Notes: generated by a model from the sequence alone, not told the origin. Shown: positions 6,007 through 39,528, counted from the stretch's first letter. The stretch is DNA of 64,000 nt from a virus (IMGVR_UViG_3300025543_005580:32001-96000), one strand, 5' to 3'. Translations and numbers: made by a program.

Positions 6007-6947
6007 ATGATTTCTTTAAATAATTCTATTAATTCTCTTGAACGATTTAACCATGATAATTCATTCGCTGTATTTATAGAGCGAGTACGGTATTCTGGAT
6101 ATTCGTTTATAATTGTATCTAGGCCTCTTAGCATTTCTCCTAAATGACGTGGGGATCTCCATAATCCATGAAAATCAGTTTCCATCTCAATCCATCCTAA
6201 AATAGGTAAACCACAAGCTGCTGCTTCTACTAATGTAAGATTAGGATGTCCAGCTTCCAAATCTGAAGGATGGAGAAATATTGTATGTGATGTATATAAA
6301 TTTCTAAGTTCTTTATTTGAGGGTTCCCAAACAACATTTAATTTATCATACCCATAAGCCCAAGGGTTATCATTAAACCAATTTTCATTATTTTTAGGAC
6401 CTGCTATTGTAATTGGTAAATTACGAGACATAGCGGTTTGAATACCAAATGTAAATCCTTTTCTATCATATGCACCATAACCACCTAAACCATTATTTGC
6501 TAACATTAATAACTTATGATCTGTTGGATATGTGTTATTAGGATAAAAATCATTAGTATTCACACCATGTGAAAAATACATAACTTTATCCGTTTCAAAA
6601 TAATCAACTAAATAACGAGCAGGAACTAATGATAATACTGAGCGTTCCATTGCTTCTAGATTTTGTTTATATACATAAGAATTTTTACCATAATGATATG
6701 CATGATGGTCATGATGTTGGAAAACATAAGGTACACCCCTATCTGCTAATTCTAAGGCTAAATTAGCTACGTGTACCATTACTATATCATAATCTCCAGG
6801 TTGTACTTCACTTGACCATTTTAAATCAACTTCATGTCCTAATTCCTTAAGATTACATATAAATTCCCATACAATTTTTTCAATAGCTCCCCACGATGGT
6901 GGAGGTATTGGGATACCACAGCCTGGGTTTATTTGTGCTATTCTCAT
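6003..6947 (-). CDS. Glycosyltransferase family 4 (GT-B)
   Basis: IPPPSWGAIEK N-terminus; E-x7-E motif (EAGHPNLTLVEAAACGLP). Confidence 0.85.
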   Translation of the reverse strand: MRIAQINPGCGIPIPPPSWGAIEKIVWEFICNLKELGHEVDLKWSSEVQPGDYDIVMVHVANLALELADRGVPYVFQHHDHHAYHYGKNSYVYKQNLEAMERSVLSLVPARYLVDYFETDKVMYFSHGVNTNDFYPNNTYPTDHKLLMLANNGLGGYGAYDRKGFTFGIQTAMSRNLPITIAGPKNNENWFNDNPWAYGYDKLNVVWEPSNKELRNLYTSHTIFLHPSDLEAGHPNLTLVEAAACGLPILGWIEMETDFHGLWRSPRHLGEMLRGLDTIINEYPEYRTRSINTANELSWLNRSRELIELFKEII

Positions 6948-8905
6948 CTAATTGTTAATTGGCCGTTATTTGTTAAATCATCAGTTGATAATATTTTAGT
7001 ATCAACTAATCCTAATTTATCAATTATTGTAAATTTAATTCTACTACCTTTAATATAAGGAATAAGTTTATAATAATCTATTTTTTGATTAACTTCAATT
7101 ACATCTATATGGGTTTCTTCTCCATTGATATATGATGATATTTCAATTGTTTTACTTTCCTTAGCATTAGATATTCTAATAAAAGGAGCTATCATATTTT
7201 CTTTATTAGTAGGCAACACTGTATAATATTCTACTCTTGAAAAGTCTTCATGAATAAATGAAGTAGATATTAATTCATTGAATTTATCTTCAGATTCATA
7301 ATATATGTTTGAGAGATTTTTAAAAGCATGATACATCATATTTTCATACCCATTAGATTCACTACCCCATTCATTACGTAATAACTCATAATCATTAGTA
7401 TTCATTATTTTTGGGATATTATCTAAATAAAAACTAGAGTTAATTCCTAAAAAATAAGTATACACAGTATCTCCTTCAGCCGCTTTATATTTTCCTAAAT
7501 ACGCATTTTTATTATTTAAAATTTTAGATATTTTATCTATACCTTCTGAGTTGGTGAGGATATAATCATAATTTAGGAAATATACCTTTTTATAACCTAA
7601 ATTATTAGCTAATGCTGCTCCGTTATGATAATTAGAATAACAACTAGGACCGTGGTATATATCATTATCATTACCTCGTAAATTAATTTGAATATCTGCT
7701 TCTTGAGTTGAGGTATAATAATTACAATAATATGAATGTTTTGTTAAAATATTATTATTATCATTAATAGTATAATCTGCTAGTTTTGATAATTCCTCTG
7801 GGATAGGAATATGTGAAGTTAGTATTACTTTTCTACCTGTTGCTTTAACAGATTCAATACATTTTTTAGTTGTAGAGATTACACTATCGGAATTAGGATA
7901 AGTAGAAATTATAAATATTTCATTTTCCGGTGTTACTGTTATTTCCTCTCCTAAAGTTTGTAATATTAAATTTTTATTTTTATCTAAATCATCAAACTCT
8001 AAATAATTAACACTATCATATGAATCAAAGTAATTTTGATATACTTCTAAGTTATACAATAATTGGGGAATTTGATATGATAACGCCTCCCGAATTACTA
8101 AAGGCATAGTTTCCTTATCATTATTAGTACCGCGTGAAGTAAATAAAAATAAGTCCATTGATTGGTAAAAATTATTTACATCCGTACGTTCATTCCACCA
8201 AGTTAAGTTATCTGGTTTATTAGCCATTAATGGTTCCCAATACCATTTAAAATTATCTGCTTGATTACCTACACTATGAAATTCGATATCGGGTAACATT
8301 TTAGCATATTCAAAAAATTCTGCTTGATTTTTACGTGATGTAAATAATCCAATATGTAATACGTGTTTTTTATCTGGATTTAATCCTAATTTTTTTAATG
8401 CTTTACTCCTATCAGGACGATCAACATATTCAATAGGATATTCTACTAATATTTTAGGAATATCTATATCTTTATATTGATCAATTTGCCATTGAGATAC
8501 AAACATAAATTTGTCTGGAAAGAATTGTTTATTGTCTGTATCGAATGAAGAATCATGTGATGTTTCTACAATTTTATATGAACGATTAGTATCATATATT
8601 TTTTCCATAATATCCTTTGGAAAATGAGCTAATTCAGGAATTTCTTCTAAATGAATAATATCGGGTTTGATTCTATTAATTATATCTAAAATTTCTGTTT
8701 TATCTTCTCCTAAAGTATAAAATCTTTCTGTAGGTAATAGAGCTTTAATCTTATTACGAGTTACAACTAACACACCTCCAGTTACATCCGCCCATTCAAT
8801 TAAATGAATTTCATATTCATCTTTTAATAGTTCAATTTTTTTAGTTAAATATTGAGGTAAACCTCCAGTAGATAAATGGGGGGCAATGTATAATAACTTT
8901 TTCAT
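6944..8905 (-). CDS. Two-domain glycosyltransferase (GT4 plus a probable GT-A-like domain)
   Basis: HLSTGGLPQY, RKNQ, DLFLFTS and ETMPLVIREAL motifs; second domain with VILTSH and FLNYD. Confidence 0.8.
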   Translation of the reverse strand: MKKLLYIAPHLSTGGLPQYLTKKIELLKDEYEIHLIEWADVTGGVLVVTRNKIKALLPTERFYTLGEDKTEILDIINRIKPDIIHLEEIPELAHFPKDIMEKIYDTNRSYKIVETSHDSSFDTDNKQFFPDKFMFVSQWQIDQYKDIDIPKILVEYPIEYVDRPDRSKALKKLGLNPDKKHVLHIGLFTSRKNQAEFFEYAKMLPDIEFHSVGNQADNFKWYWEPLMANKPDNLTWWNERTDVNNFYQSMDLFLFTSRGTNNDKETMPLVIREALSYQIPQLLYNLEVYQNYFDSYDSVNYLEFDDLDKNKNLILQTLGEEITVTPENEIFIISTYPNSDSVISTTKKCIESVKATGRKVILTSHIPIPEELSKLADYTINDNNNILTKHSYYCNYYTSTQEADIQINLRGNDNDIYHGPSCYSNYHNGAALANNLGYKKVYFLNYDYILTNSEGIDKISKILNNKNAYLGKYKAAEGDTVYTYFLGINSSFYLDNIPKIMNTNDYELLRNEWGSESNGYENMMYHAFKNLSNIYYESEDKFNELISTSFIHEDFSRVEYYTVLPTNKENMIAPFIRISNAKESKTIEISSYINGEETHIDVIEVNQKIDYYKLIPYIKGSRIKFTIIDKLGLVDTKILSTDDLTNNGQLTIR

Positions 8906-8911
8906 AAATTT

Positions 8912-9505
8912 TTATTTAAAATGTGAACCACCTAACCATAATACTAAGGATCTCCGGGTTCCCCTAGTTATAGGTGAAACTCTGTGGAGGATATATGAAG
9001 GAAACAATACAGCAACTCCTTTTCCTCTAATTGTTTTTTCTGGGGAACCACCTCTTAATACTTCTAAATCACCACCTTCATAATCATTTGTGTCTGATAA
9101 TTGTATTGTGACTGATACTTTTCTAATACTTAATTCTCCAGGGCCTATATCTTGGTGCCAATCATAATGACCTCCATTATCGAAATATTCTGTAAATTGG
9201 ATAGATTCAGGCATCGAGTGTAAATCAAAATTCCATATTGAATTTGCTTCTTTAGCTAATTCTGATATTCTCCAGTAGATCCAACTAAATTCATCAGTTT
9301 GGGGGACCCATCTAACTGTTGATTTTCTAATACCTGTGATTTCATCAGCTTCACCACCACCAGCTATACTAGCATGTTGGGTAGGAATTTTACTGCAATC
9401 CGTAATAATTTTATCTATCTCTTCGGGTGAAAATGCTTCTTGAAACCAATAAAATTCTGTTGGATTAGTATCGTAATTTGGATCAAAATTATAAAATGTT
9501 TTCAT
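8912..9505 (-). CDS. 2OG-Fe(II) oxygenase (prolyl-4-hydroxylase/PKHD-like)
   Basis: H-x-D (WHQD), YEGGDL, LHRVSPITRGTRRSLVLW. Confidence 0.9.
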   Translation of the reverse strand: MKTFYNFDPNYDTNPTEFYWFQEAFSPEEIDKIITDCSKIPTQHASIAGGGEADEITGIRKSTVRWVPQTDEFSWIYWRISELAKEANSIWNFDLHSMPESIQFTEYFDNGGHYDWHQDIGPGELSIRKVSVTIQLSDTNDYEGGDLEVLRGGSPEKTIRGKGVAVLFPSYILHRVSPITRGTRRSLVLWLGGSHFK

Positions 9506-9508
9506 GTA

Positions 9509-10159
9509 TTAATATCTTGGGGGTTCTGGTTTATCACAATCAAAAAAGAACATATGAAAATATCTAGAGTTATAAATGTTATCTCCAAAATATTCACTAG
9601 CAGCATGAATTGTACGAGCATCCCATACTGCTAATCTATTATATACATTACCAATTTTATCTATTAATTCTAATTTAGTTTTATCATAATAGTTACCATT
9701 CGGGAAAGTATCATTATATATTTCGCTTCCATTTTCCCAAGGTTCAAACCTTGTTTTTCCTGTTATTCTAGAACGATAAAAATTAGTACCTGATTCTGGT
9801 GGAGCATCTGGGGTTAAAAATACTACAGCGGCATATTGTTGGGTATCACAATGGTATACTAATGAATCTTGGGCATTACAAAACTGAAATACGCCATTGT
9901 AATTATAATCCCAGTTAGTTATTTCACGTTGTAATATTTTTTCAATTTTTTCTTTTGTACCTTCAACTATTAATTTTTCATGACTACGTTGTCCTTTATG
10001 CCATTGAGATGGTTCAAAATTAAAATTATTTATAGTAAAATCCCTAATACCATCAGGGTCATTATAAAAATTATCTACAGCTAATACTGTGATTTCATGT
10101 CCATTATTAATACCTGAACGGGTTAATTCGTGAAATTGTTTAAATTGTTCTGTCATCAT
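9509..10159 (-). CDS. 2OG-Fe(II) oxygenase-like protein (DUF6445-like)
   Basis: VDNFYNDPD, HCD, SGTNFY, NVYNRL..W....IH, R..H.FFF motifs. Confidence 0.8.
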   Translation of the reverse strand: MMTEQFKQFHELTRSGINNGHEITVLAVDNFYNDPDGIRDFTINNFNFEPSQWHKGQRSHEKLIVEGTKEKIEKILQREITNWDYNYNGVFQFCNAQDSLVYHCDTQQYAAVVFLTPDAPPESGTNFYRSRITGKTRFEPWENGSEIYNDTFPNGNYYDKTKLELIDKIGNVYNRLAVWDARTIHAASEYFGDNIYNSRYFHMFFFDCDKPEPPRY

Positions 10160-11400
10160 AGTTCTCTATATCCTGGTCTACGTTTATCACTTTTAATAGC
10201 ACTTAAATAAGCTCGAGTAACAGGGATATTATTTTCATACATAAATTCATCTGGGAAGTATGTATCTAGTACATATGATTGGAAATGGATTTTATCATTA
10301 TAAATAAAACCAGCATGTAATTTTTTAGTATAATACCAAAATGAATTTTCATTCCAATAACTTACGTGTGTAGGGTCTTGAAAAGCTCCTCTACCATCTG
10401 TAGAAGGGACTTCAATAAAAGCCCATGCACCATCTGCTAATACTCTATGCATTTCAGACATAGTAAATTGTTTATCAGGTAAATGTTCAATTACATGAGA
10501 TGCATTTATTACACCAATTGAATTATCTTCAAATGGCCATTTTTGCGTTAAATCCGCAGTAATATCTCCATTCGTAATATCCACCGACTCATATCCTTCA
10601 CGCGGGTATAAACCACCACCTATGTCAATTTTACGTAAACCTTTTAGGTCAGCATCTCGTTCAGCTAAACGTTGTTGCCATTCATACATCATAGCAACTG
10701 TTCCTTCTTGAATTTCTTGATTACGCTCTAACCATGTATTTTCTCCATAAATTCTATAAAAATAAAGTGTTTTAGGAATATATTTAAATAGAGTAATCAT
10801 GTATGTTCTCATCATTAATTCCTGATCATCCAAAATAGATAATTCTGGGTTATGACCTCCTACTTCTCTATAAATAGATGCTCTCCAAGAACGAACATGA
10901 TCAGGAGCAAACCAAATAAGAGATACACAATTTGCTGATGGTTCAAATGAATCCATAGAGATATAATGTTTACCTTTCCATTCAGCTTGTCTATAAGTCC
11001 AACCATATTCTTCTCCATAAGGAACAAAATCATCCTGTAGTTTAGCATTATCACTATATACAAAACCAATTTCAGGGTCTTCAAATGCTTTTGCTACTTC
11101 TGATAGACAATCAGGGGTAATAACATCATCATGATCTACTTCTACTAGAATATCACCAGTTGCAATATGGAATGCTTTGTTTTTTAGATACCCTACGTTT
11201 GTACTTAATGGGGTTTTAATATCATGGTGGATATTAACCCTAGGGTCATTAACTATTTCAGATGATAAATCATCTTTACGTAGACCTCCATTTAGATAAA
11301 GAAGCCATTCCCAATCTTGATATGTTTGGTCTTTTAATGAATCGTACAATTCATTTAAATATGTTCCCTTGTGGGTTGGTGTAACTACACTTAATTTCAT
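10156..11400 (-). CDS. GT2 glycosyltransferase fused to a SAM-dependent methyltransferase-like domain
   Basis: SVVTPT and VEVDHDD (DxD) motifs; C-terminal DIGGG, ASHVIEHL and DPTHVSYW. Confidence 0.85.
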   Translation of the reverse strand: MKLSVVTPTHKGTYLNELYDSLKDQTYQDWEWLLYLNGGLRKDDLSSEIVNDPRVNIHHDIKTPLSTNVGYLKNKAFHIATGDILVEVDHDDVITPDCLSEVAKAFEDPEIGFVYSDNAKLQDDFVPYGEEYGWTYRQAEWKGKHYISMDSFEPSANCVSLIWFAPDHVRSWRASIYREVGGHNPELSILDDQELMMRTYMITLFKYIPKTLYFYRIYGENTWLERNQEIQEGTVAMMYEWQQRLAERDADLKGLRKIDIGGGLYPREGYESVDITNGDITADLTQKWPFEDNSIGVINASHVIEHLPDKQFTMSEMHRVLADGAWAFIEVPSTDGRGAFQDPTHVSYWNENSFWYYTKKLHAGFIYNDKIHFQSYVLDTYFPDEFMYENNIPVTRAYLSAIKSDKRRPGYREL

Positions 11401-11453: not shown

Positions 11454-14400
11454 TTAGTTTATTTTTTTAGCAATAAGGTGTGCACTTTTTATATAATGTT
11501 GGTTTGTTGCAGAAGCAAATGTATACATAGCTATTATATCACCATTATTAAGGTAAAAACAACCATATACTTTAGCAGCACATTGGTGACTAGTAGTTGA
11601 ACCTGTTACTTTAGTTCTACCTGAGGATAAATAGTTGTTTGTATTGGTTGTTTTAACTAATTTAACAATAGTAGCTCCTAAATCTTGAGATCCATTGTTT
11701 TCTTCAACATTTACAATACCTTCTATATAATACATTCCGGTAACACCAATTTGTAAACCACCATATGTTTGACCACCTACAACTACTGGGGTTACATTAC
11801 CATAAGGTAATGATATTATATTCATTGGTGCTGTTACTGCTGTAGCATCTGAGGTTCCTATAGTAACATTTAATCCTTGTCCCCATATACCATCACCACC
11901 TTCAGATAAACCACTATATCCTGAAGGACCTGTAGGACCATTTGAACCTGTATATCCTGTATATCCTTGGGCTCCTCTAGAACCTTGAGGTCCAGGATTA
12001 TTTGTACCTTGATATCCTTGAGCACCTTGAGAACCTGTTGGATTACTACCTTGATATCCTTGAACACCTTGAGAACCTTGGGGACCTCTACCTCCCTGTG
12101 CACCACTAGGTGCCCCTGGGTCTCCTGTAGGTCCTTGGGTACCTTGAGCACCTCTTGGATTTGGACCTGCTACTCCTTGATAACCTTGACTACCACGACC
12201 ACCTTGACCACCTTGAGAACCTGTACCACCTTGTGGACCGCGGTTTGCTCCTTGATAACCCTGAACACCTGGATTACCATTAGGAGTAGGACCAGATTGA
12301 CCTTGACCACCTCTACCACCTTGAGGACCTTGATAACCCTGAAATCCTCTAGTAGTATTTGCTGTACCTTGACTACCTTGATCACCTTGAGGACCTCTAT
12401 ATCCTGTTGGTTGATTACCTTGATATCCTTGAGGTCCTTGAGTTCCTTGAGAACCATTTGGCCCTCCATGTCCTTGATACCCTGTACTAACTCCTTGGGT
12501 ACCTTGAGGTCCAGTTGGTCCTATATATCCTGTTGGTTGATTACCTTGATATCCTTGAGGTCCTTGAGGACCTCTTGGTGTTGGTGATCCTTGAGTACCT
12601 TGAGGTCCTTTAACTCCACTTTGGGGTCCTTGATAACCTTGAGGTCCTATATATCCTGTTGGTTGATTACCTTGATATCCTTGAGGTCCTTGAGGACCTC
12701 TACCTGTACCAGGACCTGTGTATCCTTGAGGTCCTTGGGGACCACCTTGATAACCCTGAGGTCCTTGATAACCTCTATATCCTGTTGGTTGATTGCCTTG
12801 GTAACCCTGAGGTCCTTGAGGACCTCTACCTGTACCTGGTCCTGTATATCCTTGTGGTCCTTGAGGACCACCTTGATAACCTTGAGGTCCTTGATATCCT
12901 TGGTATCCAGTTGGTTGATTACCTTGATATCCTTGAGGTCCTTGAGGACCTCTACCTGTACCAGGACCTGTGTATCCTTGAGGTCCTTGGGGACCACCTT
13001 GATAACCCTGAGGTCCTTGATATCCTTGGGCTCCTGTAGGTTGATTACCTTGATAACCTTGAGGTCCTCTATATCCTTGATAACCTTGAGACCCACCTCC
13101 ACCTTGATCACCTTGTGGTCCTCCTTGGTAACCTTGAGAACCACCAAATCCTGTTCTACCACCTAATCCTGTTGGTGATGTACCTTGATATCCTTGAGGT
13201 CCTTGCGTTCCTCTACCACCTTGACCACCTTGTGGTCCTGTATTACCACCTTGATAACCTTGTGAACCCTGATTTCCTTGTGAACCTCTAGGTTCTGGTC
13301 CTCTAATACCTTGGTAACCTTGTGATCCCTGACCACCTCGTCCTCCTTGAGGTCCTCGATAACCATTAACACTACCTTGATAACCCTGAGGTCCTTGGTA
13401 ACCTAAATATCCTTGTAAGCCCTGGTAACCTTGGGCACCACCTCCACCTTGAGTACCAACAGTAGTATTTTGTCTACCTACACTATCAAATAACTCATTT
13501 GGATCAATCTGCCAAGTTGATGATCCTGGTTTTTGCCAGTATACTCGTAAACCATCTCCACCACCATATTCTTGCATTCTAGCTTTAAAGTTGTAAGCTA
13601 CACCTGCTGTTAACGAAATGGTACCTGTTGTAGTACCAATAGGAGGTGTACCTCTACCGCCGTAGAAGCCACATACAAACGTATTATTAATGTATAAATC
13701 ACCGGAATCATCCGATTCACATGAGAATGTATATGTACCTGTTTCTGTTGGTACAAATGTACCAAATACTACAAATGAGTAATAGTCACCTGAGTTTGGA
13801 ACAGGGACACCTGCATTTACGAGTGTGGTATAGTTTAAAAAGTCAATACCAACAGTAGCATCAATTTGACCTGAACCAACCAATGATGTGGCTGCTTGGG
13901 TTGTATTTAATAAAATATCAAATTGGGGTGAATTTAATGGGTAATTAGTAAATCCGTTATTAATATAATCTGCTGAGTTACCATTACCATAGTGGGTAGA
14001 AAATACTTCATATGATAATATACCTACATCTTTTTTAATACCTTGATATCCTTGAGGCCCTTGATAACCTTGTGAACCACCAACACCATTTATACCTATA
14101 ATTCCTTCATAACCTTGAACTCCTTGACTACCTTGAGCACCACCTGCACCTGGAGAAGGGGTTGCCCCTGTATTTCCTCCTTGTCCTGGGTTGCCACCTA
14201 AACCGGCACGTCCTAAATTTCCTGTTCTACCTCCAAAACCTTGAATTCCTTGACTACCTTGACCACCTTGAGATCCATTAGGACCTGAGTATCCAGAATG
14301 ACCAAAAAGACTATCTGTTTTTCGAAGTGTCTTAGATACAGGGTCTACTGTAAGATATGTTTCTATGCTAGGATGTGTTGTTATAGTTTGGATATCAGCA

Positions 14401-14489
14401 TATGATCCTGATAGTATAGCGTTTTCCACAATTGATTGTGTAGTAGAACCACTAACATATATCTTATTTCCAGTTATTTCTAAACCCAT
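11454..14489 (-). CDS. Gly-X-Y fibre protein, paralogue C, with a PA14-like insert and a C1q/BclA-like C-terminal domain
   Basis: MGLEITGN start; GxQ/GYQ triplets; TGTYTFSCESDDSGDLYIN...QEYGGGD insert; C-terminal TGMYYI...LNNGDII. Confidence 0.8.
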   Translation of the reverse strand: MGLEITGNKIYVSGSTTQSIVENAILSGSYADIQTITTHPSIETYLTVDPVSKTLRKTDSLFGHSGYSGPNGSQGGQGSQGIQGFGGRTGNLGRAGLGGNPGQGGNTGATPSPGAGGAQGSQGVQGYEGIIGINGVGGSQGYQGPQGYQGIKKDVGILSYEVFSTHYGNGNSADYINNGFTNYPLNSPQFDILLNTTQAATSLVGSGQIDATVGIDFLNYTTLVNAGVPVPNSGDYYSFVVFGTFVPTETGTYTFSCESDDSGDLYINNTFVCGFYGGRGTPPIGTTTGTISLTAGVAYNFKARMQEYGGGDGLRVYWQKPGSSTWQIDPNELFDSVGRQNTTVGTQGGGGAQGYQGLQGYLGYQGPQGYQGSVNGYRGPQGGRGGQGSQGYQGIRGPEPRGSQGNQGSQGYQGGNTGPQGGQGGRGTQGPQGYQGTSPTGLGGRTGFGGSQGYQGGPQGDQGGGGSQGYQGYRGPQGYQGNQPTGAQGYQGPQGYQGGPQGPQGYTGPGTGRGPQGPQGYQGNQPTGYQGYQGPQGYQGGPQGPQGYTGPGTGRGPQGPQGYQGNQPTGYRGYQGPQGYQGGPQGPQGYTGPGTGRGPQGPQGYQGNQPTGYIGPQGYQGPQSGVKGPQGTQGSPTPRGPQGPQGYQGNQPTGYIGPTGPQGTQGVSTGYQGHGGPNGSQGTQGPQGYQGNQPTGYRGPQGDQGSQGTANTTRGFQGYQGPQGGRGGQGQSGPTPNGNPGVQGYQGANRGPQGGTGSQGGQGGRGSQGYQGVAGPNPRGAQGTQGPTGDPGAPSGAQGGRGPQGSQGVQGYQGSNPTGSQGAQGYQGTNNPGPQGSRGAQGYTGYTGSNGPTGPSGYSGLSEGGDGIWGQGLNVTIGTSDATAVTAPMNIISLPYGNVTPVVVGGQTYGGLQIGVTGMYYIEGIVNVEENNGSQDLGATIVKLVKTTNTNNYLSSGRTKVTGSTTSHQCAAKVYGCFYLNNGDIIAMYTFASATNQHYIKSAHLIAKKIN
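12406..13160. repeat. 126-bp (42-aa) tandem repeat
   Basis: Anchors at 12406, 12532, 12658, 12784, 12910 and 13036. Confidence 0.9.
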
Positions 14490-14502
14490 TATATTATTTT
14501 AT

Positions 14503-14511
14503 TATAAATAT
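14503..14511 (-). promoter_or_regulatory. Putative late promoter (fibre C)
   Basis: Conserved intergenic motif. Confidence 0.7.
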
Positions 14512-14512
14512 T

Positions 14513-17026
14513 TTAAATTGAAATGATGTTTATTGTAAGATAGTTCCATATTGATTGTAATCCTGCAGATGTTGTAGTATTAACTACTGCTACTTTAGCA
14601 GATAGTAATGCCCCTGAGTTATTAAAATCATACACCCCAGCCATACTAAATGTAGTAACGTGAGCGTTGCTACTAGCTGTATATCCTCCTGTACCTGATA
14701 ATGGTCCATTACTACTATCATATAAATAACAATATAGTTTATCGTTACTAAATTGATCATATATAGTAAAAGATGTTTGAATATAATATACTCCAGGATT
14801 TAATGATATTTGATTAGCATCCCTTCCACTTACAATTCCTGTAAATCCATTAGATGAATATAGAGTAAGTGATGGACTATCAGGCATTCCAGGATCAGGT
14901 AATTCTGGGTCTTTCCATATAGGTGCACCATCTGCACAAATCACACCCCATTCACTACCTCCATTATTAGCAGTTGTATCTGCTCCTCCTGGTCCTGTTG
15001 GTCCTGCACTACCACCAGCTCCTGTAGGACCTCCATATCCTTGTACTCCTTGAGGTCCAGTTGAACTTGTGCCTTGAGGACCTATAATACCTTGTGGACC
15101 TTGAGAACCCTGACCTCCTCTAGCATATCCTGTATAACCAGTAGGACCTCCATACCCTTGTGGACCCCTTGGTGCTTGAGATCCTTGAGATCCTTGTGAA
15201 CCTACATATCCATTATATCCTTGAGATCCTTGTGAACCTGCTCTATTTACACCTTGTACACCATTATACCCTTGTGGACCTTGTGGTCCTAAAGGAGAAA
15301 CAGGTCCTTGATAACCTTGAGGACCTTTATATCCTATAGCACCTTGAGCACCTTGAGGTCCTTGAGAGCCGGCTTTATTTACACCTTGGTAACCTTGAGG
15401 ACCTCTATATCCTGTATAACCATTATATCCTTGAGGTCCTCTACTACCTGTATATCCTTGAGGTCCTGTATATCCTTGAGGTCCTGTTAAACCTTGACCA
15501 CCTGCTATACCAGTATATCCTGTTCTACCTAAAGGACCTTGGGTACCTTGAGAACCCCTAAGACCTGTAGGGCCTTTAAATCCTTGACTACCTTGGGAAC
15601 CTCTACCACCTTGAGCACCTTGACCACCTGCTATACCAGTATAACCAGTATAACCACCTGGACCTTGGGTACCTTGGTATCCTCTACCACCTTGAGATCC
15701 ATAATGTCCTTGTGGACCTGGGTTACCGGCACCACCTTCAAGTCCGGTACCACCTGCTATACCAGTGTATCCTGTATAACCTCCAGGACCTTGAGTACCT
15801 TGAGGACCTCTATATCCCGTGTGACCTACTATACCAGTATAACCAGTATAACCACCTGGTCCTGTTAAACCTTGACCACCTGCTATACCAGTGTATCCTG
15901 TATAACCTCCAGGACCTTGAGTACCTTGAGGACCTCTATATCCCGTGTGACCTACTATACCTGTATTTCCTGTTCTACCTCCTGGTCCTGTTAAACCTTG
16001 ACCACCTGCTATACCAGTATAACCAGTATAACCACCTGGACCTTGGGTACCTTGAGGACCTCTATATCCCGTGTGACCTACTATACCTGTATTTCCTGTT
16101 CTACCTCCTGGTCCTGTTAAACCTTGACCACCTGCTATACCAGTGTATCCTGTAGGTCCTCCAATTCCTGTAAGACCTTGTGGACCTTGATAACCTTGAG
16201 GTCCTACATATCCTATAGATCCTTGACCACCACGACCACCTTGACCACCACGACCACCTTGAGCTCCTGTAAATCCGGTTGCATTTATATATCCTTGAGG
16301 ACCTTGATATCCTTGAGATCCTTGGGTACCTACAAATCCAGTTCTACCTGTATAACCAGTATATCCTTGTGGACCCTGATTACCTTGAGTACCTACTCTA
16401 CCTACATATCCATTATATCCTTGGGGACCCTGGTTACCTTGGGTACCTATAGGTCCAACATATCCTGTTCTACCTCCAGGTCCACCTGTACCGTTTATTC
16501 CAATTATACCATTAGCGCCTTGAGGTCCATAAAAACCTGAAAGTCCTTGGTTACCTGGGGCTCCTATTATACCTGTATATCCTAAGTTACCTGTTCTACC
16601 ATTAACACCTTGACCACCTTGTGGTCCTTGTATACCTAATATTCCCTTAGGACCAACATATCCAGTAGGTCCTTGAGCACCTTGAGGTCCTTGATTACCT
16701 CCACCACCTTGATTACCCCTACCACCTTGAGTACCTCTACCACCTTGACCACCTTGAGGACCTCCAGTACCAGTAGGACCAGTATATCCAGTTCTACCTT
16801 GATTACCTTGTGAACCTTGACTACCACGTCCTCCTGTGTGTCCTGGTGTTTTAGCACGTCTATATAATACTCCATTAGTATCTACACCAATGTAATTACC
16901 TGTGGATGGATTTGAAGATAATACATCAACAACGGGAACATTTCCATCAAAAATCACATTTTCAATGTGAACTTCTGTATCAGTTCCTGTTGCTATTATC
17001 GTATTATTTGTTATTTGTAATCCCAT
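14513..17026 (-). CDS. Gly-X-Y fibre protein, paralogue B
   Basis: MGLQITNN start; long uninterrupted triplet region; C-terminal beta domain with PGVYYI. Confidence 0.8.
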   Translation of the reverse strand: MGLQITNNTIIATGTDTEVHIENVIFDGNVPVVDVLSSNPSTGNYIGVDTNGVLYRRAKTPGHTGGRGSQGSQGNQGRTGYTGPTGTGGPQGGQGGRGTQGGRGNQGGGGNQGPQGAQGPTGYVGPKGILGIQGPQGGQGVNGRTGNLGYTGIIGAPGNQGLSGFYGPQGANGIIGINGTGGPGGRTGYVGPIGTQGNQGPQGYNGYVGRVGTQGNQGPQGYTGYTGRTGFVGTQGSQGYQGPQGYINATGFTGAQGGRGGQGGRGGQGSIGYVGPQGYQGPQGLTGIGGPTGYTGIAGGQGLTGPGGRTGNTGIVGHTGYRGPQGTQGPGGYTGYTGIAGGQGLTGPGGRTGNTGIVGHTGYRGPQGTQGPGGYTGYTGIAGGQGLTGPGGYTGYTGIVGHTGYRGPQGTQGPGGYTGYTGIAGGTGLEGGAGNPGPQGHYGSQGGRGYQGTQGPGGYTGYTGIAGGQGAQGGRGSQGSQGFKGPTGLRGSQGTQGPLGRTGYTGIAGGQGLTGPQGYTGPQGYTGSRGPQGYNGYTGYRGPQGYQGVNKAGSQGPQGAQGAIGYKGPQGYQGPVSPLGPQGPQGYNGVQGVNRAGSQGSQGYNGYVGSQGSQGSQAPRGPQGYGGPTGYTGYARGGQGSQGPQGIIGPQGTSSTGPQGVQGYGGPTGAGGSAGPTGPGGADTTANNGGSEWGVICADGAPIWKDPELPDPGMPDSPSLTLYSSNGFTGIVSGRDANQISLNPGVYYIQTSFTIYDQFSNDKLYCYLYDSSNGPLSGTGGYTASSNAHVTTFSMAGVYDFNNSGALLSAKVAVVNTTTSAGLQSIWNYLTINIISI
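15498..16150. repeat. 126-bp (42-aa) tandem repeat
   Basis: CCACCTGCTATACCAGT at 15498, 15624, 15750, 15876, 16002 and 16128. Confidence 0.9.
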
Positions 17027-17030
17027 TATA

Positions 17031-17039
17031 TATAAATAT
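17031..17039 (-). promoter_or_regulatory. Putative late promoter (fibre B)
   Basis: Conserved motif 4 nt from the ATG. Confidence 0.7.
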
Positions 17040-19598
17040 TTAAGACAATTTTGTTATCATTAAGCAAGATGATCCTTGTTCTGGGGATTGGCTAAAATTC
17101 ATTAGACCTCCTGTTAAGTTGTAAACTCTAGGATACCTGGTTGATATAGATCCAAAAGTATAAGTCATAGCTATTGTTAATCCTGTTACTATTAAACCTG
17201 CAGTAGCATAGTTAGATACATTTTCAAAGGTTGCTAATTCAGCCCCACCATTTCCAGGAATTATTGATTGTTGATCGTTAAAATCAATCATTACAGTTTC
17301 TGATGTTGTACCTACATTAAGTCCTCCTTGTATTGGTTGGTTGCAACTAAATATAACACTATATTCTATATAATAAGTACCTGCATTGAATTGAATATTA
17401 TTTGCATTTACTGTTATACCGGCAATACTACCAATAGGAGAACCACAACTCAAAATAGACATTGTATTATTAGCTATTCCATTTTCACTTAATGGGACTA
17501 TAACTTTAGAACCACCATTTGGATCACCTAAACCAGGTGATCCTGTAGGTCCAGTACCTGAACCAGAACTACCTTGACCACCTTGAGAACCTCTTCTACC
17601 ATTAGGCCCATCTTCTCCATTAACTCCTGTAGGTCCTTGTGATCCTCTATATCCAGAATAACCTGTATTTGCTGCTGTTCCTTGGGGACCTCTACCACCT
17701 GGTCCTCCTGTATATCCTCCTGGTCCTCCAAATCCAGTATAACCAACTCCACCAGTACCACCTTGTGGACCTCTATATCCTGTATTTGCTGTTGAACCAA
17801 CTTGACCTTGTGGTCCTTGATAACCACTACTACCTCCTCTTGTAACACCGGCAAATCCAGTAAGACCTTGACCACCTTGATTTCCTCTATGTCCTTGATA
17901 ACCTGTATATGAAGTAGAACCTGTAGGTCCAGTATATCCTGCTAATCCACCACCTCCTTGTGGTCCTCTATATCCTTGAGAACCATTAATACCATTAAGA
18001 CCTTTTGGTCCATTATTACCTTGAGGACCTTGAGGTCCTGGGCCTGCTCCTTGAGGACCTCTAGGTCCAGTAGGTGGGGCATATGAACCATATCCTTGTG
18101 GTCCTTGATTACCTTGACCACCAACAATACCATTATATCCTTGTGGTCCTTGATTACCTTGAGGTCCAGGACCTGATCCTTGAGGACCTCTTCCACCAGT
18201 AGCGGCTAGGAAGGCTGTATATCCTTGAAGACCGGGTTGGCCTTGAGGTCCAGTGGCTCCTTGATTACCTTGACCACCTTGAGGACCTTGAGGTCCTGTA
18301 GTACCACTTTGAGCACCTCGAGCTCCTGGGGCTGCTGTTCGACCAGTATATCCTTGAGAACCACGTCCACCTTGGCCGCCTTGAGTACCTCTACCACCTT
18401 GACCACCTTGAGGACCTTGAGGTCCTGTTGTTGAGCTTTGAGCACCTCGAGCTCCTGGGGCTGCTGTTAGACCAGTATATCCTTGGGAACCACGTCCACC
18501 TTGGCCGCCTTGAGTACCTCTACCACCTTGACCACCTTGAGGACCTTGAGGTCCTGTAGTACCACTTTGAGCACCTCGAGCTCCTGGGGCTGCTGTTCGA
18601 CCAGTATATCCTTGAGAACCACGTCCACCTTGGCCGCCTTGAGTACCTCTACCACCTTGACCACCTTGAGGACCTTGAGGTCCTGTTGTTGAGCTTTGAG
18701 CACCTCTACCACCTTGACCACCCTGAGGGCCTCTATACCCAGATATACCCCTAGGTCCTGTACCTCCTTGATTTCCTATATATCCTTGAACACCTTGGTA
18801 TCCTTGAGGGCCTGTAGGACCTGAACCACCTTGTGGACCTCTAGGTCCATTAAATCCAGTGTATCCTCCTAATCCAGTAGGACCTTGTCCCCCTTGATTA
18901 CCTCTACCTCCAGTAGGTCCAGTATAACCTGTAGGACCATTTACTGTACTTTGGGTACCTTGAGAACCTTGAGGTCCTCCAAATCCTGTTATACCGTTAT
19001 TACCTTGAGGACCTTGACCACCTTGATTACCACGTCCACCTTGACCACCTTGAGAACCTTGTCCACCTTGTACACCTCTTAAACCTGTATTTCCTCCAGC
19101 TCCTCCTGAAGCACCCGGAGTACCTTGTTGTCCAACAGGTCCTTGTGAACCTCTACCTCCTTGTGGACCTCTATATCCTGTAAATCCTTGATTTCCTTGT
19201 GTACCTTGACTACCACGTCCTCCAGTAGGTCCAGTGTAACCACCTCTACCTCCAGGACCTGGGGTACCTTGATACCCAGGTACTCCTTGATATCCTGTAA
19301 CACCTTGATTACCTTGTGATCCTTGGTTTCCTTGAGCACCTTGACTTCCACCATTACCTGTACGGCCTGTATTTCCTGTATATCCTTGGGGTCCTTGAGG
19401 TCCTTGTGAACCCGCACTTCTTACAGTATCATATACTCTAGCTCCGGAAGTTGTGAAGGTTACAAAATCACCATCATTAGAATGAGTTTGCAGGTTTAGG
19501 ACGACAGGGTTCATTGACCCTGTCATCACTACTGTCCTCATATCTATATCATTAGAACCTGTTGGAAAGATTCTATTGCCTGTTATTTCTAAACCCAT
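17040..19598 (-). CDS. Gly-X-Y fibre protein, paralogue A
   Basis: MGLEITGN start; triplet region; C-terminal beta domain with AGTYYI. Confidence 0.8.
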   Translation of the reverse strand: MGLEITGNRIFPTGSNDIDMRTVVMTGSMNPVVLNLQTHSNDGDFVTFTTSGARVYDTVRSAGSQGPQGPQGYTGNTGRTGNGGSQGAQGNQGSQGNQGVTGYQGVPGYQGTPGPGGRGGYTGPTGGRGSQGTQGNQGFTGYRGPQGGRGSQGPVGQQGTPGASGGAGGNTGLRGVQGGQGSQGGQGGRGNQGGQGPQGNNGITGFGGPQGSQGTQSTVNGPTGYTGPTGGRGNQGGQGPTGLGGYTGFNGPRGPQGGSGPTGPQGYQGVQGYIGNQGGTGPRGISGYRGPQGGQGGRGAQSSTTGPQGPQGGQGGRGTQGGQGGRGSQGYTGRTAAPGARGAQSGTTGPQGPQGGQGGRGTQGGQGGRGSQGYTGLTAAPGARGAQSSTTGPQGPQGGQGGRGTQGGQGGRGSQGYTGRTAAPGARGAQSGTTGPQGPQGGQGNQGATGPQGQPGLQGYTAFLAATGGRGPQGSGPGPQGNQGPQGYNGIVGGQGNQGPQGYGSYAPPTGPRGPQGAGPGPQGPQGNNGPKGLNGINGSQGYRGPQGGGGLAGYTGPTGSTSYTGYQGHRGNQGGQGLTGFAGVTRGGSSGYQGPQGQVGSTANTGYRGPQGGTGGVGYTGFGGPGGYTGGPGGRGPQGTAANTGYSGYRGSQGPTGVNGEDGPNGRRGSQGGQGSSGSGTGPTGSPGLGDPNGGSKVIVPLSENGIANNTMSILSCGSPIGSIAGITVNANNIQFNAGTYYIEYSVIFSCNQPIQGGLNVGTTSETVMIDFNDQQSIIPGNGGAELATFENVSNYATAGLIVTGLTIAMTYTFGSISTRYPRVYNLTGGLMNFSQSPEQGSSCLMITKLS
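18260..18720. repeat. 129-bp (43-aa) tandem repeat
   Basis: GAGCACCTC anchors at 18311, 18440, 18569 and 18698. Confidence 0.9.
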
Positions 19599-19607
19599 AT
19601 TCGTTTA

Positions 19608-22600
19608 TTAAATATTAATGTAAGCATTAATAACATACGAGTCACCACTTCCGCTTTCGAGAGCTTTTGCAAATACTACATCTTGTAAGTTTTCGTTAAT
19701 CATTTCTTCTCTCGTTATTGCTTTAGCATGTCCTACTTTATCTGAAGTAACAAGATAATCACCTTCTTTTACTATTCCAATTACAAGTACTGGTTCAGCA
19801 CCTTGAACAATTGGAATATTTTTATCAGGTACCATGACTCCCATTCTCATGTGATCTTTTTCGTTTGTACATGGAACTAAATCTCCATCTTTCCAAACCA
19901 TTACAGTACCTAATTCGTGATTATTATTATCTTCTTTATTATTACCTGCTAAGTTCTGTTCAAATATACCACAAGTATTAAATGCGATTGCCCAAACATC
20001 TCTCCAACATAAATCTGGTCTACCAATATCCCAAACTCTATCTTGTATTGGGTTCATATTACCATCCCAATTGAAATCTGGGGCTGTATAATTGGCAACT
20101 GTTAATCTATTTGGTCTACCTGCGTTGTAACTAACAATTTCACCGTTATTAGCTGTATTGCTCCAGTTAATAGCAATATCATTAGCATTAACAGTAATAC
20201 CTGTACCTGAACCTATGTTTAATGTTCTATCAGTTGATAACGCACCTCCACCAGTTAAACCTGAACCTGCGATAATTGACACGTAAGTACCGCTTGTACC
20301 CACATTACCTGATATACCACTAGTACCATCTATACCTGAAGTTCCTGATGTTCCTGAACCACCTGATACTCCACTAGCACCACCAACACCTGAGGTACCG
20401 TTTGAACCTGTTGAACCTGATGTTCCTGATAATCTACTTAATCCGCTTGTTCCAGCTACACCACTTGTACCAATTGTACCTGAAGAACCGCTAGTTCCAC
20501 TAGTAGCGCTTAATCCTGATAAACCAGCATTACCTGTTGTACCATTTGAACCTGTTGAACCACTAGTTCCAGATACTCTACTTAATCCATTTGTACCATT
20601 ATTACCTGTTGTACCATTTGAACCTGAACTACCTGATGTTCCAGATAATTTACTCAATCCATTTGTACCAGTATTACCTGAAGTACCATTTGAACCTGTT
20701 GATCCACTTGTTCCTGATGCTCTACTTAATCCATTTGTACCAGTATTACCTGAAGTACCTGATGAACCACTAGTACCTGAAGTTCTACTAGCACCTGAGG
20801 CACCATTGACACCTGATGTACCGTTTGAACCTGAACTACCTGAAGTACCTGATAATCTAGATAATCCATTACCACCATTAACACCTGAAGTACCATTTGA
20901 ACCACTTGATCCTGAAGTACCTGATACTCTAGATAATCCTGAAGTTCCAGCTACACCGCTTGTACCTATTGTACCTGAACTTCCTGAAGTTCCTGATGTA
21001 GCACTTAATGCTGATTGTCCTGCATTTCCAATAGTACCATTTGAACCTGATGAACCTGAAGTTCCTGAAGTTCCTGAAGTTCTACTAATACCTGAAGCAC
21101 CATTAACACCTGAGGTACCATTTGAACCACTTGATCCTGAAGTACCTGATACTCTACTTAATCCTGAAGTACCATTAACACCTGAAGTACCATTTGAACC
21201 TGTTGATCCACTTGCACCTGATGTTCTGCTTAATCCGGAAGTACCTGCAACTCCACTTGTACCAATTGTGCCTGATGAACCACTTGTTCCACTAGTAGCA
21301 CTTAATCCTGATAAACCAGCATTACCTGTTGTACCATTTGAACCTGTAGAACCTGATGTTCCAGAAGTTTTACTAGCACCTGAAACACCATTATTACCTG
21401 ATGTACCTGATGAACCACTTGTTCCTGAAGTTCTAGATATTCCGGAGGCACCATTATTACCATTTGTACCTGTTGAACCTGAAGAACCACTAGTTCCACT
21501 AGTTCTTGAAGCACCTGAAGCACCATTATTACCTGATGTACCTGAACTACCTGTTGAACCACTAGTTCCGGAAACATTACTTGTTCCGTTAGCACCTGCA
21601 TTTCCTGAAGTACCATTTGAACCTGTAGAACCACTAGTTCCGGAAACATTACTTGTTCCGTTAGCACCTGCGTTTCCTGAAGTACCATTTGAACCTGTAC
21701 TACCTGAAGTACCTGATACTCTAGATAATCCTGAAGTTCCAGCTACACCGCTTGTACCTATTGTACCTGAAGATCCTGAAGTACCACTTGTAGCGCTTAA
21801 TCCTGATAAACCAGCATTACCTGTTGTACCATTTGAACCTGATGAACCTGAAGTACCACTTGAACCTGAAGTTCTACTAATACCTGAAGCACCGTTAACA
21901 CCTGAGGTACCGTTTGAACCACTAGAACCACTTGTTCCAGAGAATCTACTTAATCCATTTGTACCATTATTACCTGTTGTACCATTTGAACCTGAACTAC
22001 CTGATGTTCCTGATAATCTACTTAATCCGTTTGTTCCAGCTACCCCACTTGTACCTATTGTACCTGAAGATCCTGATGTACCTGAAGTAGCACTTAAACC
22101 ACTTTGTCCTGCGTTTCCAGTAGTACCTGTTGAACCTGATGAACCTGATGTTCCAGAAGTTCTACTAGCACCTGAAGCACCATTAGTACCATTTGAACCA
22201 CTTGATCCTGAAGTACCTGATATATTACTTGTTCCGTTATTTCCAGCTACACCACTTGTACCATTTGAACCAGTTGAACCTGAAGTACCGGATACATTAC
22301 TTGTTCCATTAGCTCCTGCGTTTCCTGAGGTACCATTTGAACCTGTTGATCCAGAAGTTCCGGACAATGCACTTAATCCGTTTGTACCCGCAACTCCACT
22401 TGTACCTACTGTACCTGAAGATCCACTAGTTCCACTTGTAGCGCTTAATCCTGATTGTCCTGCATTACCTGTAGTACCGTTTGAACCGGTTGAACCTGAA
22501 GTACCTGATGTTTTACTTAATGCACTAGCTCCAGCATTTCCTGTTGTACCTGATGAACCTGATGAACCGCTTGTTCCTGATGTAGCACTTAATGCACTAG

Positions 22601-25600
22601 CACCTGCAACACCTGCGTTTCCTGATGTACCATTTGAACCTGTTGATCCGGAAGTACCTGAAGTCTTACTTAGTCCGGAAGTACCTGCTAATCCGCTTGT
22701 ACCAATTGTACCTGATGAACCACTAGTTCCTGATGTAGCACTTAATCCTGATAAACCAGCATTACCTGTTGTACCATTTGAACCTGTAGAACCTGATGTT
22801 CCAGAAGTACCACTTGTAGCACTTAGAGCACTTGCTCCTGCATTTCCTGCAGTACCGTTTGAACCAGTTGAACCTGAAGTTCCCGATGTTCCTGAAGTAG
22901 CACTTAGTGCTGAAGCACCTGCGTTTCCAGCTGTACCATTTGAACCAGTACTACCTGATGTACCTGAAGTACCTGCTGTAGCACTTAATCCTGAAGTACC
23001 TGCTACTCCTGAAGTACCTATTGTACCTGATGAACCTGAAGTTCCACTAGTAGCACTTAATCCTGATAAACCAGCATTACCTGTTGTACCATTTGAACCT
23101 GTAGAACCTGATGTTCCAGAAGTACCACTTGTAGCACTTAGAGCACTTGCTCCTGCATTTCCTGCAGTACCGTTTGAACCAGTTGAACCTGAAGTTCCCG
23201 ATGTTCCTGAAGTAGCACTTAGTGCTGAAGCACCTGCGTTTCCAGCTGTACCATTTGAACCAGTACTACCTGATGTACCTGAAGTACCTGCTGTAGCACT
23301 TAATCCTGAAGTACCTGCTACTCCTGAAGTACCTATTGTACCTGATGAACCTGAAGTTCCACTAGTAGCACTTAATCCTGATAAACCAGCATTACCTGAA
23401 GTACCATTTGAACCTGAAGAACCAGATGAACCAGATGAACCACTTGTTCCTGATGTAGCACTTAATGCGCTATCACCTGCGTTTCCAGCTGTACCATTTG
23501 AACCTGATGAACCGCTTGTTCCTGATGTATTACTTAATGCACTTGCACCTGCATCTCCGGCGGTACCTGATGAACCTGTACTACCTGATGTTCCACTTGT
23601 TTCACTATTACCTGAAGTTCCAGCTACACCTGATGTACCTACTGTACCTGAAGAACCACTAGTACCTGATGTAGCACTTAAACCACTTTGTCCTGAGTTT
23701 CCTGATGTACCGTTTGAACCAGTTGAACCTGAACTACCAGATGTACCTGAAGTAGCACTTAAGGCTGAAGCTCCTGCGTTTCCAGCAGTACCATTTGAAC
23801 CTGAACTTCCTGAAGTACCTGAAGTAGCACTTAGTGCTGAAGCTCCTGCATCTCCTGAAGTACCACTTGAACCTGTTGAACCTGATGTTCCACTTGTTTC
23901 GCTATTTCCTGAAGTACCTGCAACTCCACTTGTACCTATTGTACCTGAGCTTCCTGAAGTACCTGAAGTTGAACTTAATGCACTTTGTCCTGCATTTCCA
24001 GCAGTACCATTTGAGCCACTTGAACCACTAGTTCCTGATGTAGCACTTAATGCGCTAGCACCTGCATTTCCTGCTGTACCTGATGAACCTGTAGAACCAC
24101 TTGTTCCACTGGTGGCACTTAGAGCACTTACTCCTGCTTCACCTGCTGTACCTGATGAACCTGTACTACCTGATGAACCTGAAGTTCCTGAAGTTCCTGC
24201 AGATGCACTAGCACCTGAAGTACCTGCAACTCCACTTGTACCTACTGTACCTGAAGAACCACTAGTACCTGATGTAGCACTTAAACCACTTTGTCCTGCG
24301 TTTCCTGATGTACCATTTGAACCTGTACTACCTGATGAACCTGAAGTACCTGCTGATCCTGATGTTGCACTAGCACCTGAAGCACCTATACTACCGTTTG
24401 AACCTGTACTACCTGATGTACCTGAAGTACCTGATGTATTACTAATACCTGATTCACCTGCGTTACCAGACGTTCCTGTTGAACCTGTAGAACCTGATGT
24501 TCCTGAAGTTGAACTATTTCCTGATGTACCAGCAACTCCACTTGTACCAATTGTACCTGAAGAACCTGAAGTACCACTTGTAGCACTTAGTGCACTTTGT
24601 CCTGCATTTCCAGCAGTACCGTTTGAACCTGAACTACCAGATGTACCTGATGTTGCACTTAAAGCACTTGCACCAGCATCTCCAGCTGTACCTGAACTAC
24701 CAGATGAACCACTTGTTCCTGAAGTAGCACTTAAAGCTGAAGCACCTGCTTCACCTGCTGTACCATTTGAACCAGTTGAACCTGATGTACCTGAAGTACC
24801 TGCTGATCCTGATGTTGTACTATTACCGCTAGTACCAGCAACTCCACTAGTACCTACTGTACCTGAACTACCAGATGTACCTGATGTTGCGCTTAATCCT
24901 GATTGACCTGCATTACCTGAAGTACCATTTGAACCCGTTGATCCACTTGTTCCACTAGTTGCACTTAATGCACTAGCACCTGCATCTCCAGCAGTACCTG
25001 ATGAACCTGACGAACCTGAAGTACCTGAAGTAGCACTTAAAGCTGAAGCACCTGCGTCTCCTGCTGTACCTGTTGATCCTGATGAACCTGAAGTTCCTGA
25101 TGAACCTGAACTTGCACTATTTCCTGACGTACCTGCAACTCCTGAAGTACCAATTGTACCTGAAGATCCTGAAGTACCACTTGTAGCACTTAGTGCACTT
25201 TGTCCTGCATTACCTGAAGTACCATTTGAGCCACTTGAACCGCTTGTTCCGGATGTAGCACTTAATGCGCTAGCACCTGCATTTCCTGCTGTACCACTAG
25301 AACCAGTTGAACCTGATGTACCCGAAGTACCTGAAGTTGAACTTAATGCACTAGCACCTGCTTCACCTGCTGTACCATTTGAACCAGTTGAACCTGAAGT
25401 ACCTGAAGTACCTGAAGATCCTGATGAAGCACTGGCACCTGAAGTTCCAGCAACTCCACTAGTACCTACTGTACCTGAAGAACCGCTAGTTCCACTTGTA
25501 GCGCTTAATCCTGATTGACCAGCATTTCCATTTGTACCGTTTGATCCAGTACTACCTGATGATCCACTTGTACCACTAGTAGCACTTAAGGCTGAAGCTC

Positions 25601-39454: not shown

Positions 39455-39528
39455 ATACTTTGTTAATTTAGTGAAAATTATATAACTTATTATTTTATTA
39501 TACATATTAATAATATACAATATATAAC

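Follow-up and report, generated by a model that had tools for sequence, protein, structure and literature searches.

Matched collagen-like rod lengths in a trio of fibre genes from an uncultured marine myovirus

Why should three diverged fibre genes of one phage encode rods of nearly the same length? The question is raised by a 64,000-nucleotide stretch of viral DNA (IMGVR_UViG_3300025543_005580:32001-96000, hereafter the window), which corresponds to bases 32001-96000 of a 111,989-bp IMG/VR viral contig with an estimated completeness of 69% and is part of an uncultured marine myovirus. Between positions 11454 and 19598, the minus strand of the window carries three tandem genes for collagen-like fibres, here called A, B and C. 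From their similar lengths and repeat periods, an earlier note had suggested that selection acts on the chains jointly and keeps them in register, either as a C1q-like ABC heterotrimer or as a hetero-oligomeric polyglycine-II bundle.

Rod length in the trio and its relatives

One fibre design, composed of an N-terminal anchor, a collagen-like rod and a TNF/C1q-type head, underlies A, B and C, which are paralogs that diverged long ago. Translation of the open reading frames (ORFs) bore out the common start MGL(E/Q)IT(G/N)N (MGLEITGN in A and C, MGLQITNN in B) and the G-x-YYI motif in each C-terminal domain (GTYYIE in A, GVYYIQ in B and GMYYIE in C). The N-modules comprise 61-62 residues and are 28-33% identical between paralogs, with M1, G2, L3, I5, N8, I10 and G27 invariant, and the collagen sequence sets in at residue 63 (A), 62 (B) and 63 (C). 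The rods, which by their sequence may form a collagen triple helix, match Pfam Collagen (PF01391; E = 1.8e-33 for A, 1.8e-52 for B and 5.3e-23 for C) and contain 187 (A), 202 (B) and 191 (C) triplets in runs of at least three Gly-X-Y triplets. In C, the rod is interrupted by a 192-amino-acid (aa) insert with a PA14 domain (PF07691, residues 234-328; 40.7 bits against a cut-off of 24, E = 2.6e-10), which is conserved in the relatives L010, L038 and L040. Once this insert is removed, the rods span 629 (A), 622 (B) and 618 (C) residues. The whole-protein lengths of 852 and 837 aa given previously for A and B were correct, but C without its insert has 819 aa instead of about 830. Beyond Collagen, PA14 and GLEYA, no Pfam match at E≤0.01 was found in the three proteins.

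Tandem Repeats Finder confirmed one array per rod, with periods of 129, 126 and 126 bp and with unit sequences that differ among the three genes (Table 1). All three arrays lie at an equal distance from the N-terminus (residues 297-444 in A, 294-512 in B and, with the insert removed, 282-506 in C). Because arrays at homologous positions can descend from an ancestral array, the shared period of about 42 aa needs no selection to explain it. Scans of viral and metagenome contigs returned 11 further contigs with the trio, complete or cut by a contig end. Net rod changes are counted here relative to the window phage, and the repeat counts come from short-read assemblies of few independent lineages. 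The gene order of the trio and the giant gene upstream of it are conserved among these relatives, except for an A-C-B order in the deep relative L040.

Copy number had been expected to co-vary among the three genes if the chains were held in register, and it does, with matched changes in L042, L010, L049 and L050. In L042, each chain gained six residues (at residue 95 in A, 103 in B and 108 in C). These insertions are local duplications of different sequences with well-aligned flanks, and they lie within 13 residues, an arrangement that three random sites in 620 residues would reach with p=0.0015. In L010, the gain is about one array unit (A, +41 at 277-314; B, +42 at 271-291; C, +42 at 265-296), and L049 shows +41 in A and +42 in B, with C cut off. 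The extra unit in each of these two phages is about 85% identical to its own neighbour and unlike the unit in the other phage, which suggests separate duplications, with concerted evolution as the alternative. The change in L050 goes the other way (A, -43; B, partial, -42; C cut off). There was no net change in the three chains of L038, in A and B of L047 or in its partial C, or in A and B of L048, where C is absent. In L040, the rods span 650 (A), 653 (B) and 642 (C) residues.

Quantitatively, the rod lengths of A and B are strongly correlated (r=0.96, n=7, permutation p=0.0024), and the difference between A and C is 11, 10, 13 and 8 residues in four phages (r=0.998). Measured from the N-terminus, the YY strand of the head lies at closely similar positions in A and B (742/747, 751/754, 745/744, 790/788, 789/785 and 778/777), with 1-5 residues between the two chains over a range of 742-790. 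A net length change in B or C was never seen without a matching change in A, and the reverse was seen only once, in L043, where A lacks two 43-aa units (-86 aa) and B is unchanged. Gene A of L043 also carries an in-frame TAA (L043:5400-5620, GenBank contig JAAHTG010002734.1) at a position that encodes Leu in the window phage, 24 codons before the normal end, beyond which the head continues in frame. Either the gene is decaying or the contig is poorly assembled.

Could such agreement arise in independent homotrimers without physical coupling, which retain ancestral lengths and the period of about 42 aa, and whose co-variation reflects the kinship of a few lineages, indel hot spots or assembly artefacts? 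Since the arrays are homologously placed, both the common period and the site of the ~42-aa indels could stem from descent and unequal crossing-over. In the flank tree, which has the shape of a star, only an L038+L047 clade is supported, and the independence of the L010 and L049 events is left unproven. Repeat collapse does happen in such assemblies, as it probably did in L143 (454 aa, where six contigs of that phage have 560 aa), and one related phage, L156, has no trio at all. Nevertheless, the A/B/C duplications predate the split of these phages, so each matched change needs one event per gene. Moreover, the three insertions of L042 duplicate different sequences within 13 residues of each other, B and C never change alone and A does so only in the stop-bearing L043, the permutation p for A against B ranges from 0.002 to 0.009, and in the deep relative L040 the rods agree at yet another, third length. 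Gene conversion was excluded as the cause of the matched lengths, as units and inserted sequences differ between the paralogs. We consider an absence of coupling highly unlikely and, from these sequence comparisons, conclude with high confidence that selection acts to hold the three rods in axial register. The locus is a TNF/C1q-headed, PA14-bearing, length-locked trio with position-matched +6 and +42 compensations.

The common length could also be set from outside, with each fibre matched separately to a ruler such as the tail length fixed by the tape measure, through docking in a folded-back position. T4 has fibres that fold back and dock, and by our arithmetic from T4 values the roughly 12 nm of a 42-aa unit nearly equal the height of three tail rings at about 4 nm each. 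Folded-back, docked fibres also occur in cyanophage A4 (PMC12002296). However, the window phage and L038 have equal rod lengths with tape measures of 894 and 862 aa and sheaths of 658 and 568 aa, a comparison that concerns this one pair, as the tape measure of L010 (+42) is cut by the contig end. In addition, compensating indels at the same height in three chains would remain unexplained. A coupling of rod length to tail length is therefore not supported by the sequences, and we regard an external ruler as improbable. As side observations, the sheath of L010 has 575 aa, and the tape measures of the window phage and L038 are only 24% identical.

Outside these phages the rod is not confined to this length range. 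A profile of the N-module searched against 1.84 billion representative proteins returned fragments, spurious repeat proteins and one complete homolog, P0011 (306 aa), from a contig that IMG/VR does not contain. It combines the N-module of the trio with a head like that of the B-type gene of L040, but its rod measures only about 85 residues, so that a roughly sevenfold variation in rod length is possible within the family. A protein word search with the N-module of B gave no match, no cultured phage isolate with the trio N-module was found, and there was no nucleotide match to the phage collection.

Gly-X-Y interruptions and chain composition

Which assembly would impose such a register? The reading we favour, with a probability of roughly 45%, is that A, B and C form three separate homotrimeric fibres (A3, B3 and C3) that are laterally associated in axial register. 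Each fibre would consist of a 62-residue anchor, a collagen-like rod of about 180 nm and a trimerising, receptor-binding head of TNF/C1q type, and the homologous N-modules would mount the three fibres side by side as one register-locked set. The PA14 domain of C would form a carbohydrate-binding knob about 26 nm from the base. In such a set, a length change in one rod would be tolerated only if the other two gained an equal-sized change at about equal height. That the fibres are homotrimers, that they associate laterally, where they attach to the virion and that neighbouring glycosyltransferase and hydroxylase genes modify them are points that we infer. The other serious possibility, which we hold to be somewhat less probable, is one C1q-like ABC heterotrimer, with one chain of each kind in a heavily interrupted collagen-like rope of about 180 nm and with a hetero-trimeric TNF/C1q head that selects the chains. 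This rope would carry a single lateral PA14 knob and a pseudo-threefold N-terminal anchor, and would have to tolerate dozens of chain-specific interruptions. In a variant, A and B share a helix and C forms its own. Our preference for separate homotrimers over the heterotrimer is only slight.

The three chains differ in the interruptions of their Gly-X-Y pattern. The array unit of B consists of 14 perfect triplets. That of A has 13 triplets, a four-residue break (GAQ-SSTT-GPQ) and one Gly-to-Ala triplet (AAP), and that of C has 13 triplets with one +2 break (GNQ-PT-G) and one +1 break (GYQ-G-GPQ). The phase shifts every 43 aa in A, and in C +2 and +1 breaks alternate about every 21 residues. 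Overall, A is broken 15 times and C 29 times, and two stretches of B continue for 62 and 100 triplets without a break. In the second rod segment of C, successive breaks are only 3-10 triplets apart. When residues are mapped one to one along the axis, as the phase comparison presumes, no more than 48-53% of the rod has its three chains in different Gly phases, even at the best offset (mean over all offsets, 22%), and the relative phase of A and B passes through the coincident state, which is forbidden. Breaks in different chains neither line up nor avoid one another (z from -1.2 to +1.6), and we accordingly rejected the idea of staggered defects, in which breaks of different chains avoid each other within a shared helix. 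Interruptions in animal collagen heterotrimers are mostly aligned between chains, whereas those of the trio are statistically independent.

Given these patterns, a canonical ABC triple helix fits the sequences poorly. About 50 chain-specific breaks at independent positions, with Gly phases compatible over at most about half of the rod, would have to be accommodated in one helix. Each array has spread its own unit together with its own breaks; a homotrimer would not suffer from this, but a shared helix would be harmed each time. The raw residue count of C tracks A and B to within a few residues, but its in-phase residues, which would set its length if extra residues bulged out, are 27-48 short of theirs and more variable. 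It is contour length and not triplet number that is conserved. The rods are all basic, without charge complementarity, and neither the N-modules nor the rods of the three proteins contain cysteines. Furthermore, L043 has a broken A beside an intact B, some of the S74-headed sister trios described below are mismatched, and heterotrimers of prokaryotic collagen-like proteins are unreported in a review of the field (PMC8968730). The published TNF-headed phage fibres, Pam3 gp24 and A4 gp24, are each assembled as a trimer from the product of one gene (PMC9608196, PMC12002296). Of the two parts of the earlier proposal, co-selection for register stands, owing to the compensatory indels of the same size at the same height, but the ABC heterotrimer is put in doubt by the chain-specific breaks, the conservation of raw length, L043 and the mismatched S74 sets. 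The polyglycine-II bundle that had been offered with it was rejected, as the repeats are ordinary Gly-X-Y with Pro and Gln.

Several observations nonetheless weigh against three homotrimers or for a mixed helix. We know of no reason why independent flexible fibres of 180 nm should match within two triplets (1.7 nm), or at the same height, and the lateral association that would provide one is a proposal of ours. In an ABC helix, a length change in one chain would displace its N-module, which gives a direct reason for compensation with triplet precision. The size- and position-matched indels of +6 and about +42 in all three chains, the correlations of r 0.96-0.998, the N-modules of equal length and the collagen onset at residue 62 or 63 in every chain also speak for it. 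Every complete relative in both trio families has exactly three paralogs, no more and no fewer, as predicted by a helix of three chains. The in-phase counts of A and B are equal in two phages (624/624 and 615/615) and differ by 3-9 residues (1-3 triplets) in the other five. Likewise, where the head type changes from one phage to another, it changes in all three genes at once (a1b1c1 against a2b2c2). Finally, the TNF/C1q fold, which is predicted for the heads of A and B, makes natural heterotrimers such as C1q and LTa1b2.

Either outcome would be of interest. That three diverged genes are held to one rod length to within two triplets points to a physical coupling of fibre chains that has not been described previously. 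If the helix is mixed, the locus would encode a natural heterotrimeric collagen outside animals, carried by a bacteriophage and of a kind unreported in the same review, and its module for chain selection could be used as it stands to make defined ABC collagens in bacteria, a task named as an obstacle in work on recombinant collagen (PMC8968730). If there are three matched fibres, the phage would have three receptor-binding fibres of identical reach and register, in a higher-order assembly yet to be explained. Similar trios recur in other aquatic phages.

Predicted heads and related systems

The heads of A and B are predicted to adopt the ten-strand jelly-roll fold of the C1q/TNF family. The AlphaFold2 model of the A head (predicted local distance difference test, pLDDT, 71) has Foldseek matches that include 4-1BBL, CD40L, FasL, APRIL, BxpB and the fibre of cyanophage A4, and those of the B head (pLDDT 79.5) include EDA-A1, BxpB, BclA, the NC1 domains of collagens VIII and X, C1qA and LTa1b2. 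ExsFA also occurs among the matches of these two heads. The top matches of both heads have a probability of 1.00 and E values of 1e-5 to 1e-6. At the sequence level, Pfam and the PDB gave no match of the heads to the C1q or TNF families, PDB searches with the three heads returned nothing meaningful, and Pfam found no S74 match in them. By profile comparison, the three heads are weakly related to one another (E 1e-5 to 4e-4), and the C head is tied to the other two only by weak hhalign matches around the G-x-YYIE strand. Between phages, heads are 25-31% identical and N-modules 74-94%. Together with the position of the genes in the fibre module, such a fast-diverging distal domain suggests that A, B and C are tail fibre or receptor-binding proteins.

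With these models, the analogy to C1q proposed earlier appears closer than the sequence alone had indicated. Complement C1q is likewise encoded by three clustered paralogous genes, whose products begin with a short N-terminal region, continue as a collagen-like stalk and finish in a jelly-roll head, and zebrafish C1qA is among the Foldseek matches of the B head. On the other hand, the heads of the trio lack a sequence match to the C1q domain family, its rods are about eight times longer, and its N-modules and rods have no cysteines for interchain bonds. C1q has one roughly shared kink where the trio has dozens of chain-specific breaks, and C1q is an ABC heterotrimer, while the trio is known here from its genes. 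BclA of the Bacillus exosporium (with the BxpB/ExsFA heads) also resembles the trio, in having an N-terminal anchor, Thr-rich Gly-X-Y repeats whose number sets the length of the fibre, a TNF-like C-terminal trimerisation head and glycosyltransferase genes that adjoin the fibre genes. It is, however, a spore protein and a homotrimer of one gene whose length varies freely between strains, in contrast to three phage paralogs locked to one length.

Among animal collagens, the heterotrimeric types I, IV and VIII choose their chains through a terminal globular domain (PMC8968730, PMC5353611). Non-fibrillar animal collagens, like the trio, have numerous Gly-X-Y interruptions, and the NC1 domains of collagens VIII and X share the predicted head fold. 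In phages, myocyanophage Pam3 gp24 as well as cyanophage A4 gp24 and A-1(L) gp33 cell-wall-binding domain offer examples of a distal TNF-like jelly roll on a trimeric tail fibre (PMC9608196; PMC12002296), and chains 9k09_A and 8ke9_A are among the Foldseek matches of the A and B heads. Unlike the trio, these fibres are short products of single genes with alpha-helical or other shafts, without a collagen rod and without three paralogs. All characterised phage fibres with collagen rods or TNF-like heads are, to our knowledge, encoded by single genes.

Sister trios and gene neighbourhood

A second family of trios occupies the syntenic slot in L011 (747-6918) and in L138-L151, where three tandem collagen fibre genes begin with a short N-module carrying an NGL-x-V/I-G motif and end in a self-cleaving chaperone of S74 type, recognised by eye from a YSD-x-RLK motif and a C-terminal coiled coil and not by a profile search. 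Like the window trio, they are three tandem paralogs, mostly with matched rods, followed by the same glycosyltransferase and oxygenase genes. They differ in their S74 heads, in lacking the PA14 insert and in a looser matching. Rod spans are matched at 509/508/497, 384/389/384, 496/489/501 and ?/341/345, but in two of six phages one chain deviates by about 150 residues (676/656/519 and 552/707/549). The trio-less L156 (2912-14072) is a related 150-kb phage contig with the same glycosyltransferase and sheath neighbourhood, in which the only collagen-like genes encode 2569 and 1142 aa.

The window has a GC content of about 30% and all of its genes are on the minus strand. By major capsid protein, its nearest cultured phages are the Flavobacterium phages vB_FspM_immuto (54.6% identity), and gene order in immuto matches that of the window. 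The slot between the head-completion and sheath genes, which in immuto holds the annotated tail-fibre genes, carries five collagen-like genes in the window, and A, B and C are placed in the tail-fibre module on the basis of this position. They are separated by gaps of 13 and 23 nucleotides without a terminator-like site, and the trio is kept in all complete relatives. PHROG annotation identified several head and tail genes (Table 1), but in the baseplate region of the window and for its other structural genes almost nothing matched.

Table 1. Positions of the fibre genes, their parts and neighbouring genes in the window
Feature	Position (nt)	Strand	Basis or remark
Gene A, 852 aa	17040-19598	-	ORF; Pfam Collagen
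A N-module, residues 1-62	19413-19598	-
A collagen-like rod, residues 63-691	17526-19412	-
A array, 129-bp (43-aa) unit, 3.4 copies, 93% matches	18267-18706	-	Tandem Repeats Finder
A head, residues 692-852, predicted TNF/C1q-like	17043-17525	-	AlphaFold2; Foldseek
Gene B, 837 aa	14513-17026	-	ORF; Pfam Collagen
B N-module, residues 1-61		-
B collagen-like rod, residues 62-683	14978-16843	-
B array, 126-bp (42-aa) unit, 4.2 copies	15617-16144	-	Tandem Repeats Finder
B head, residues 684-837, predicted TNF/C1q-like	14516-14977	-	AlphaFold2; Foldseek
Gene C, 1011 aa	11454-14489	-	ORF; Pfam Collagen, PA14
C N-module, residues 1-62		-
C first rod segment, residues 63-152	14034-14303	-
C PA14-containing insert, residues 153-344 (192 aa)	13458-14033	-
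C second rod segment, residues 345-872, ~29 breaks	11874-13457	-
C array, 126-bp (42-aa) unit, 5.4 copies	12394-13068	-	Tandem Repeats Finder
C head, residues 873-1011	11457-11873	-	Weak hhalign matches to A and B heads
Large terminase	47583-49154	-	PHROG match
Portal	45672-47555	-	PHROG match
Prohead protease	42598-43197	-	PHROG match
Major head protein	39591-41249	-	PHROG match
PhoH	38720-39520	-	PHROG match
Collagen-like fibre gene, 675 aa	32710-34737	-	Upstream of trio
Giant collagen-like fibre gene, 4333 aa, Gly-Thr-Ser-rich	19608-32609	-	Directly upstream of gene A
GT2 and methyltransferase fusion	10156-11400	-	Downstream of trio
DUF6445	9509-10159	-	Downstream of trio
2OG-Fe(II) oxygenase, prolyl-hydroxylase type	8912-9505	-	Downstream of trio
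GT1, 653 aa	6944-8905	-	Downstream of trio
Tail sheath, 658 aa	2511-4487	-	PHROG match
Tape measure, 894 aa	Crosses low end of window	-	PHROG match

Long plus-strand ORFs antisense to the collagen genes (20806-24906 and others, up to 1366 aa) were dismissed as artefacts of stop-free triplet repeats. The block of GT2-methyltransferase, DUF6445, 2OG oxygenase and GT1 genes (6944-11400) lies downstream of the trio in the window, L010, L038 and L040 and recurs, with its genes rearranged, behind the S74-headed trios, a synteny that suggests that its products probably modify the fibres. GT1 itself has 653 aa in the window against 1122-1127 aa in L010 and L038. The giant protein encoded upstream of A contains about 3500 residues of Gly-Thr/Ser-rich triplets without Pro, in nested repeats of about 300 bp, and partial copies of its gene elsewhere exceed 3300 aa. 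Its C-terminus is a conserved globular domain of about 200 aa (...SYVINAYINI), and the sequence that encodes this domain immediately precedes gene A in every relative.

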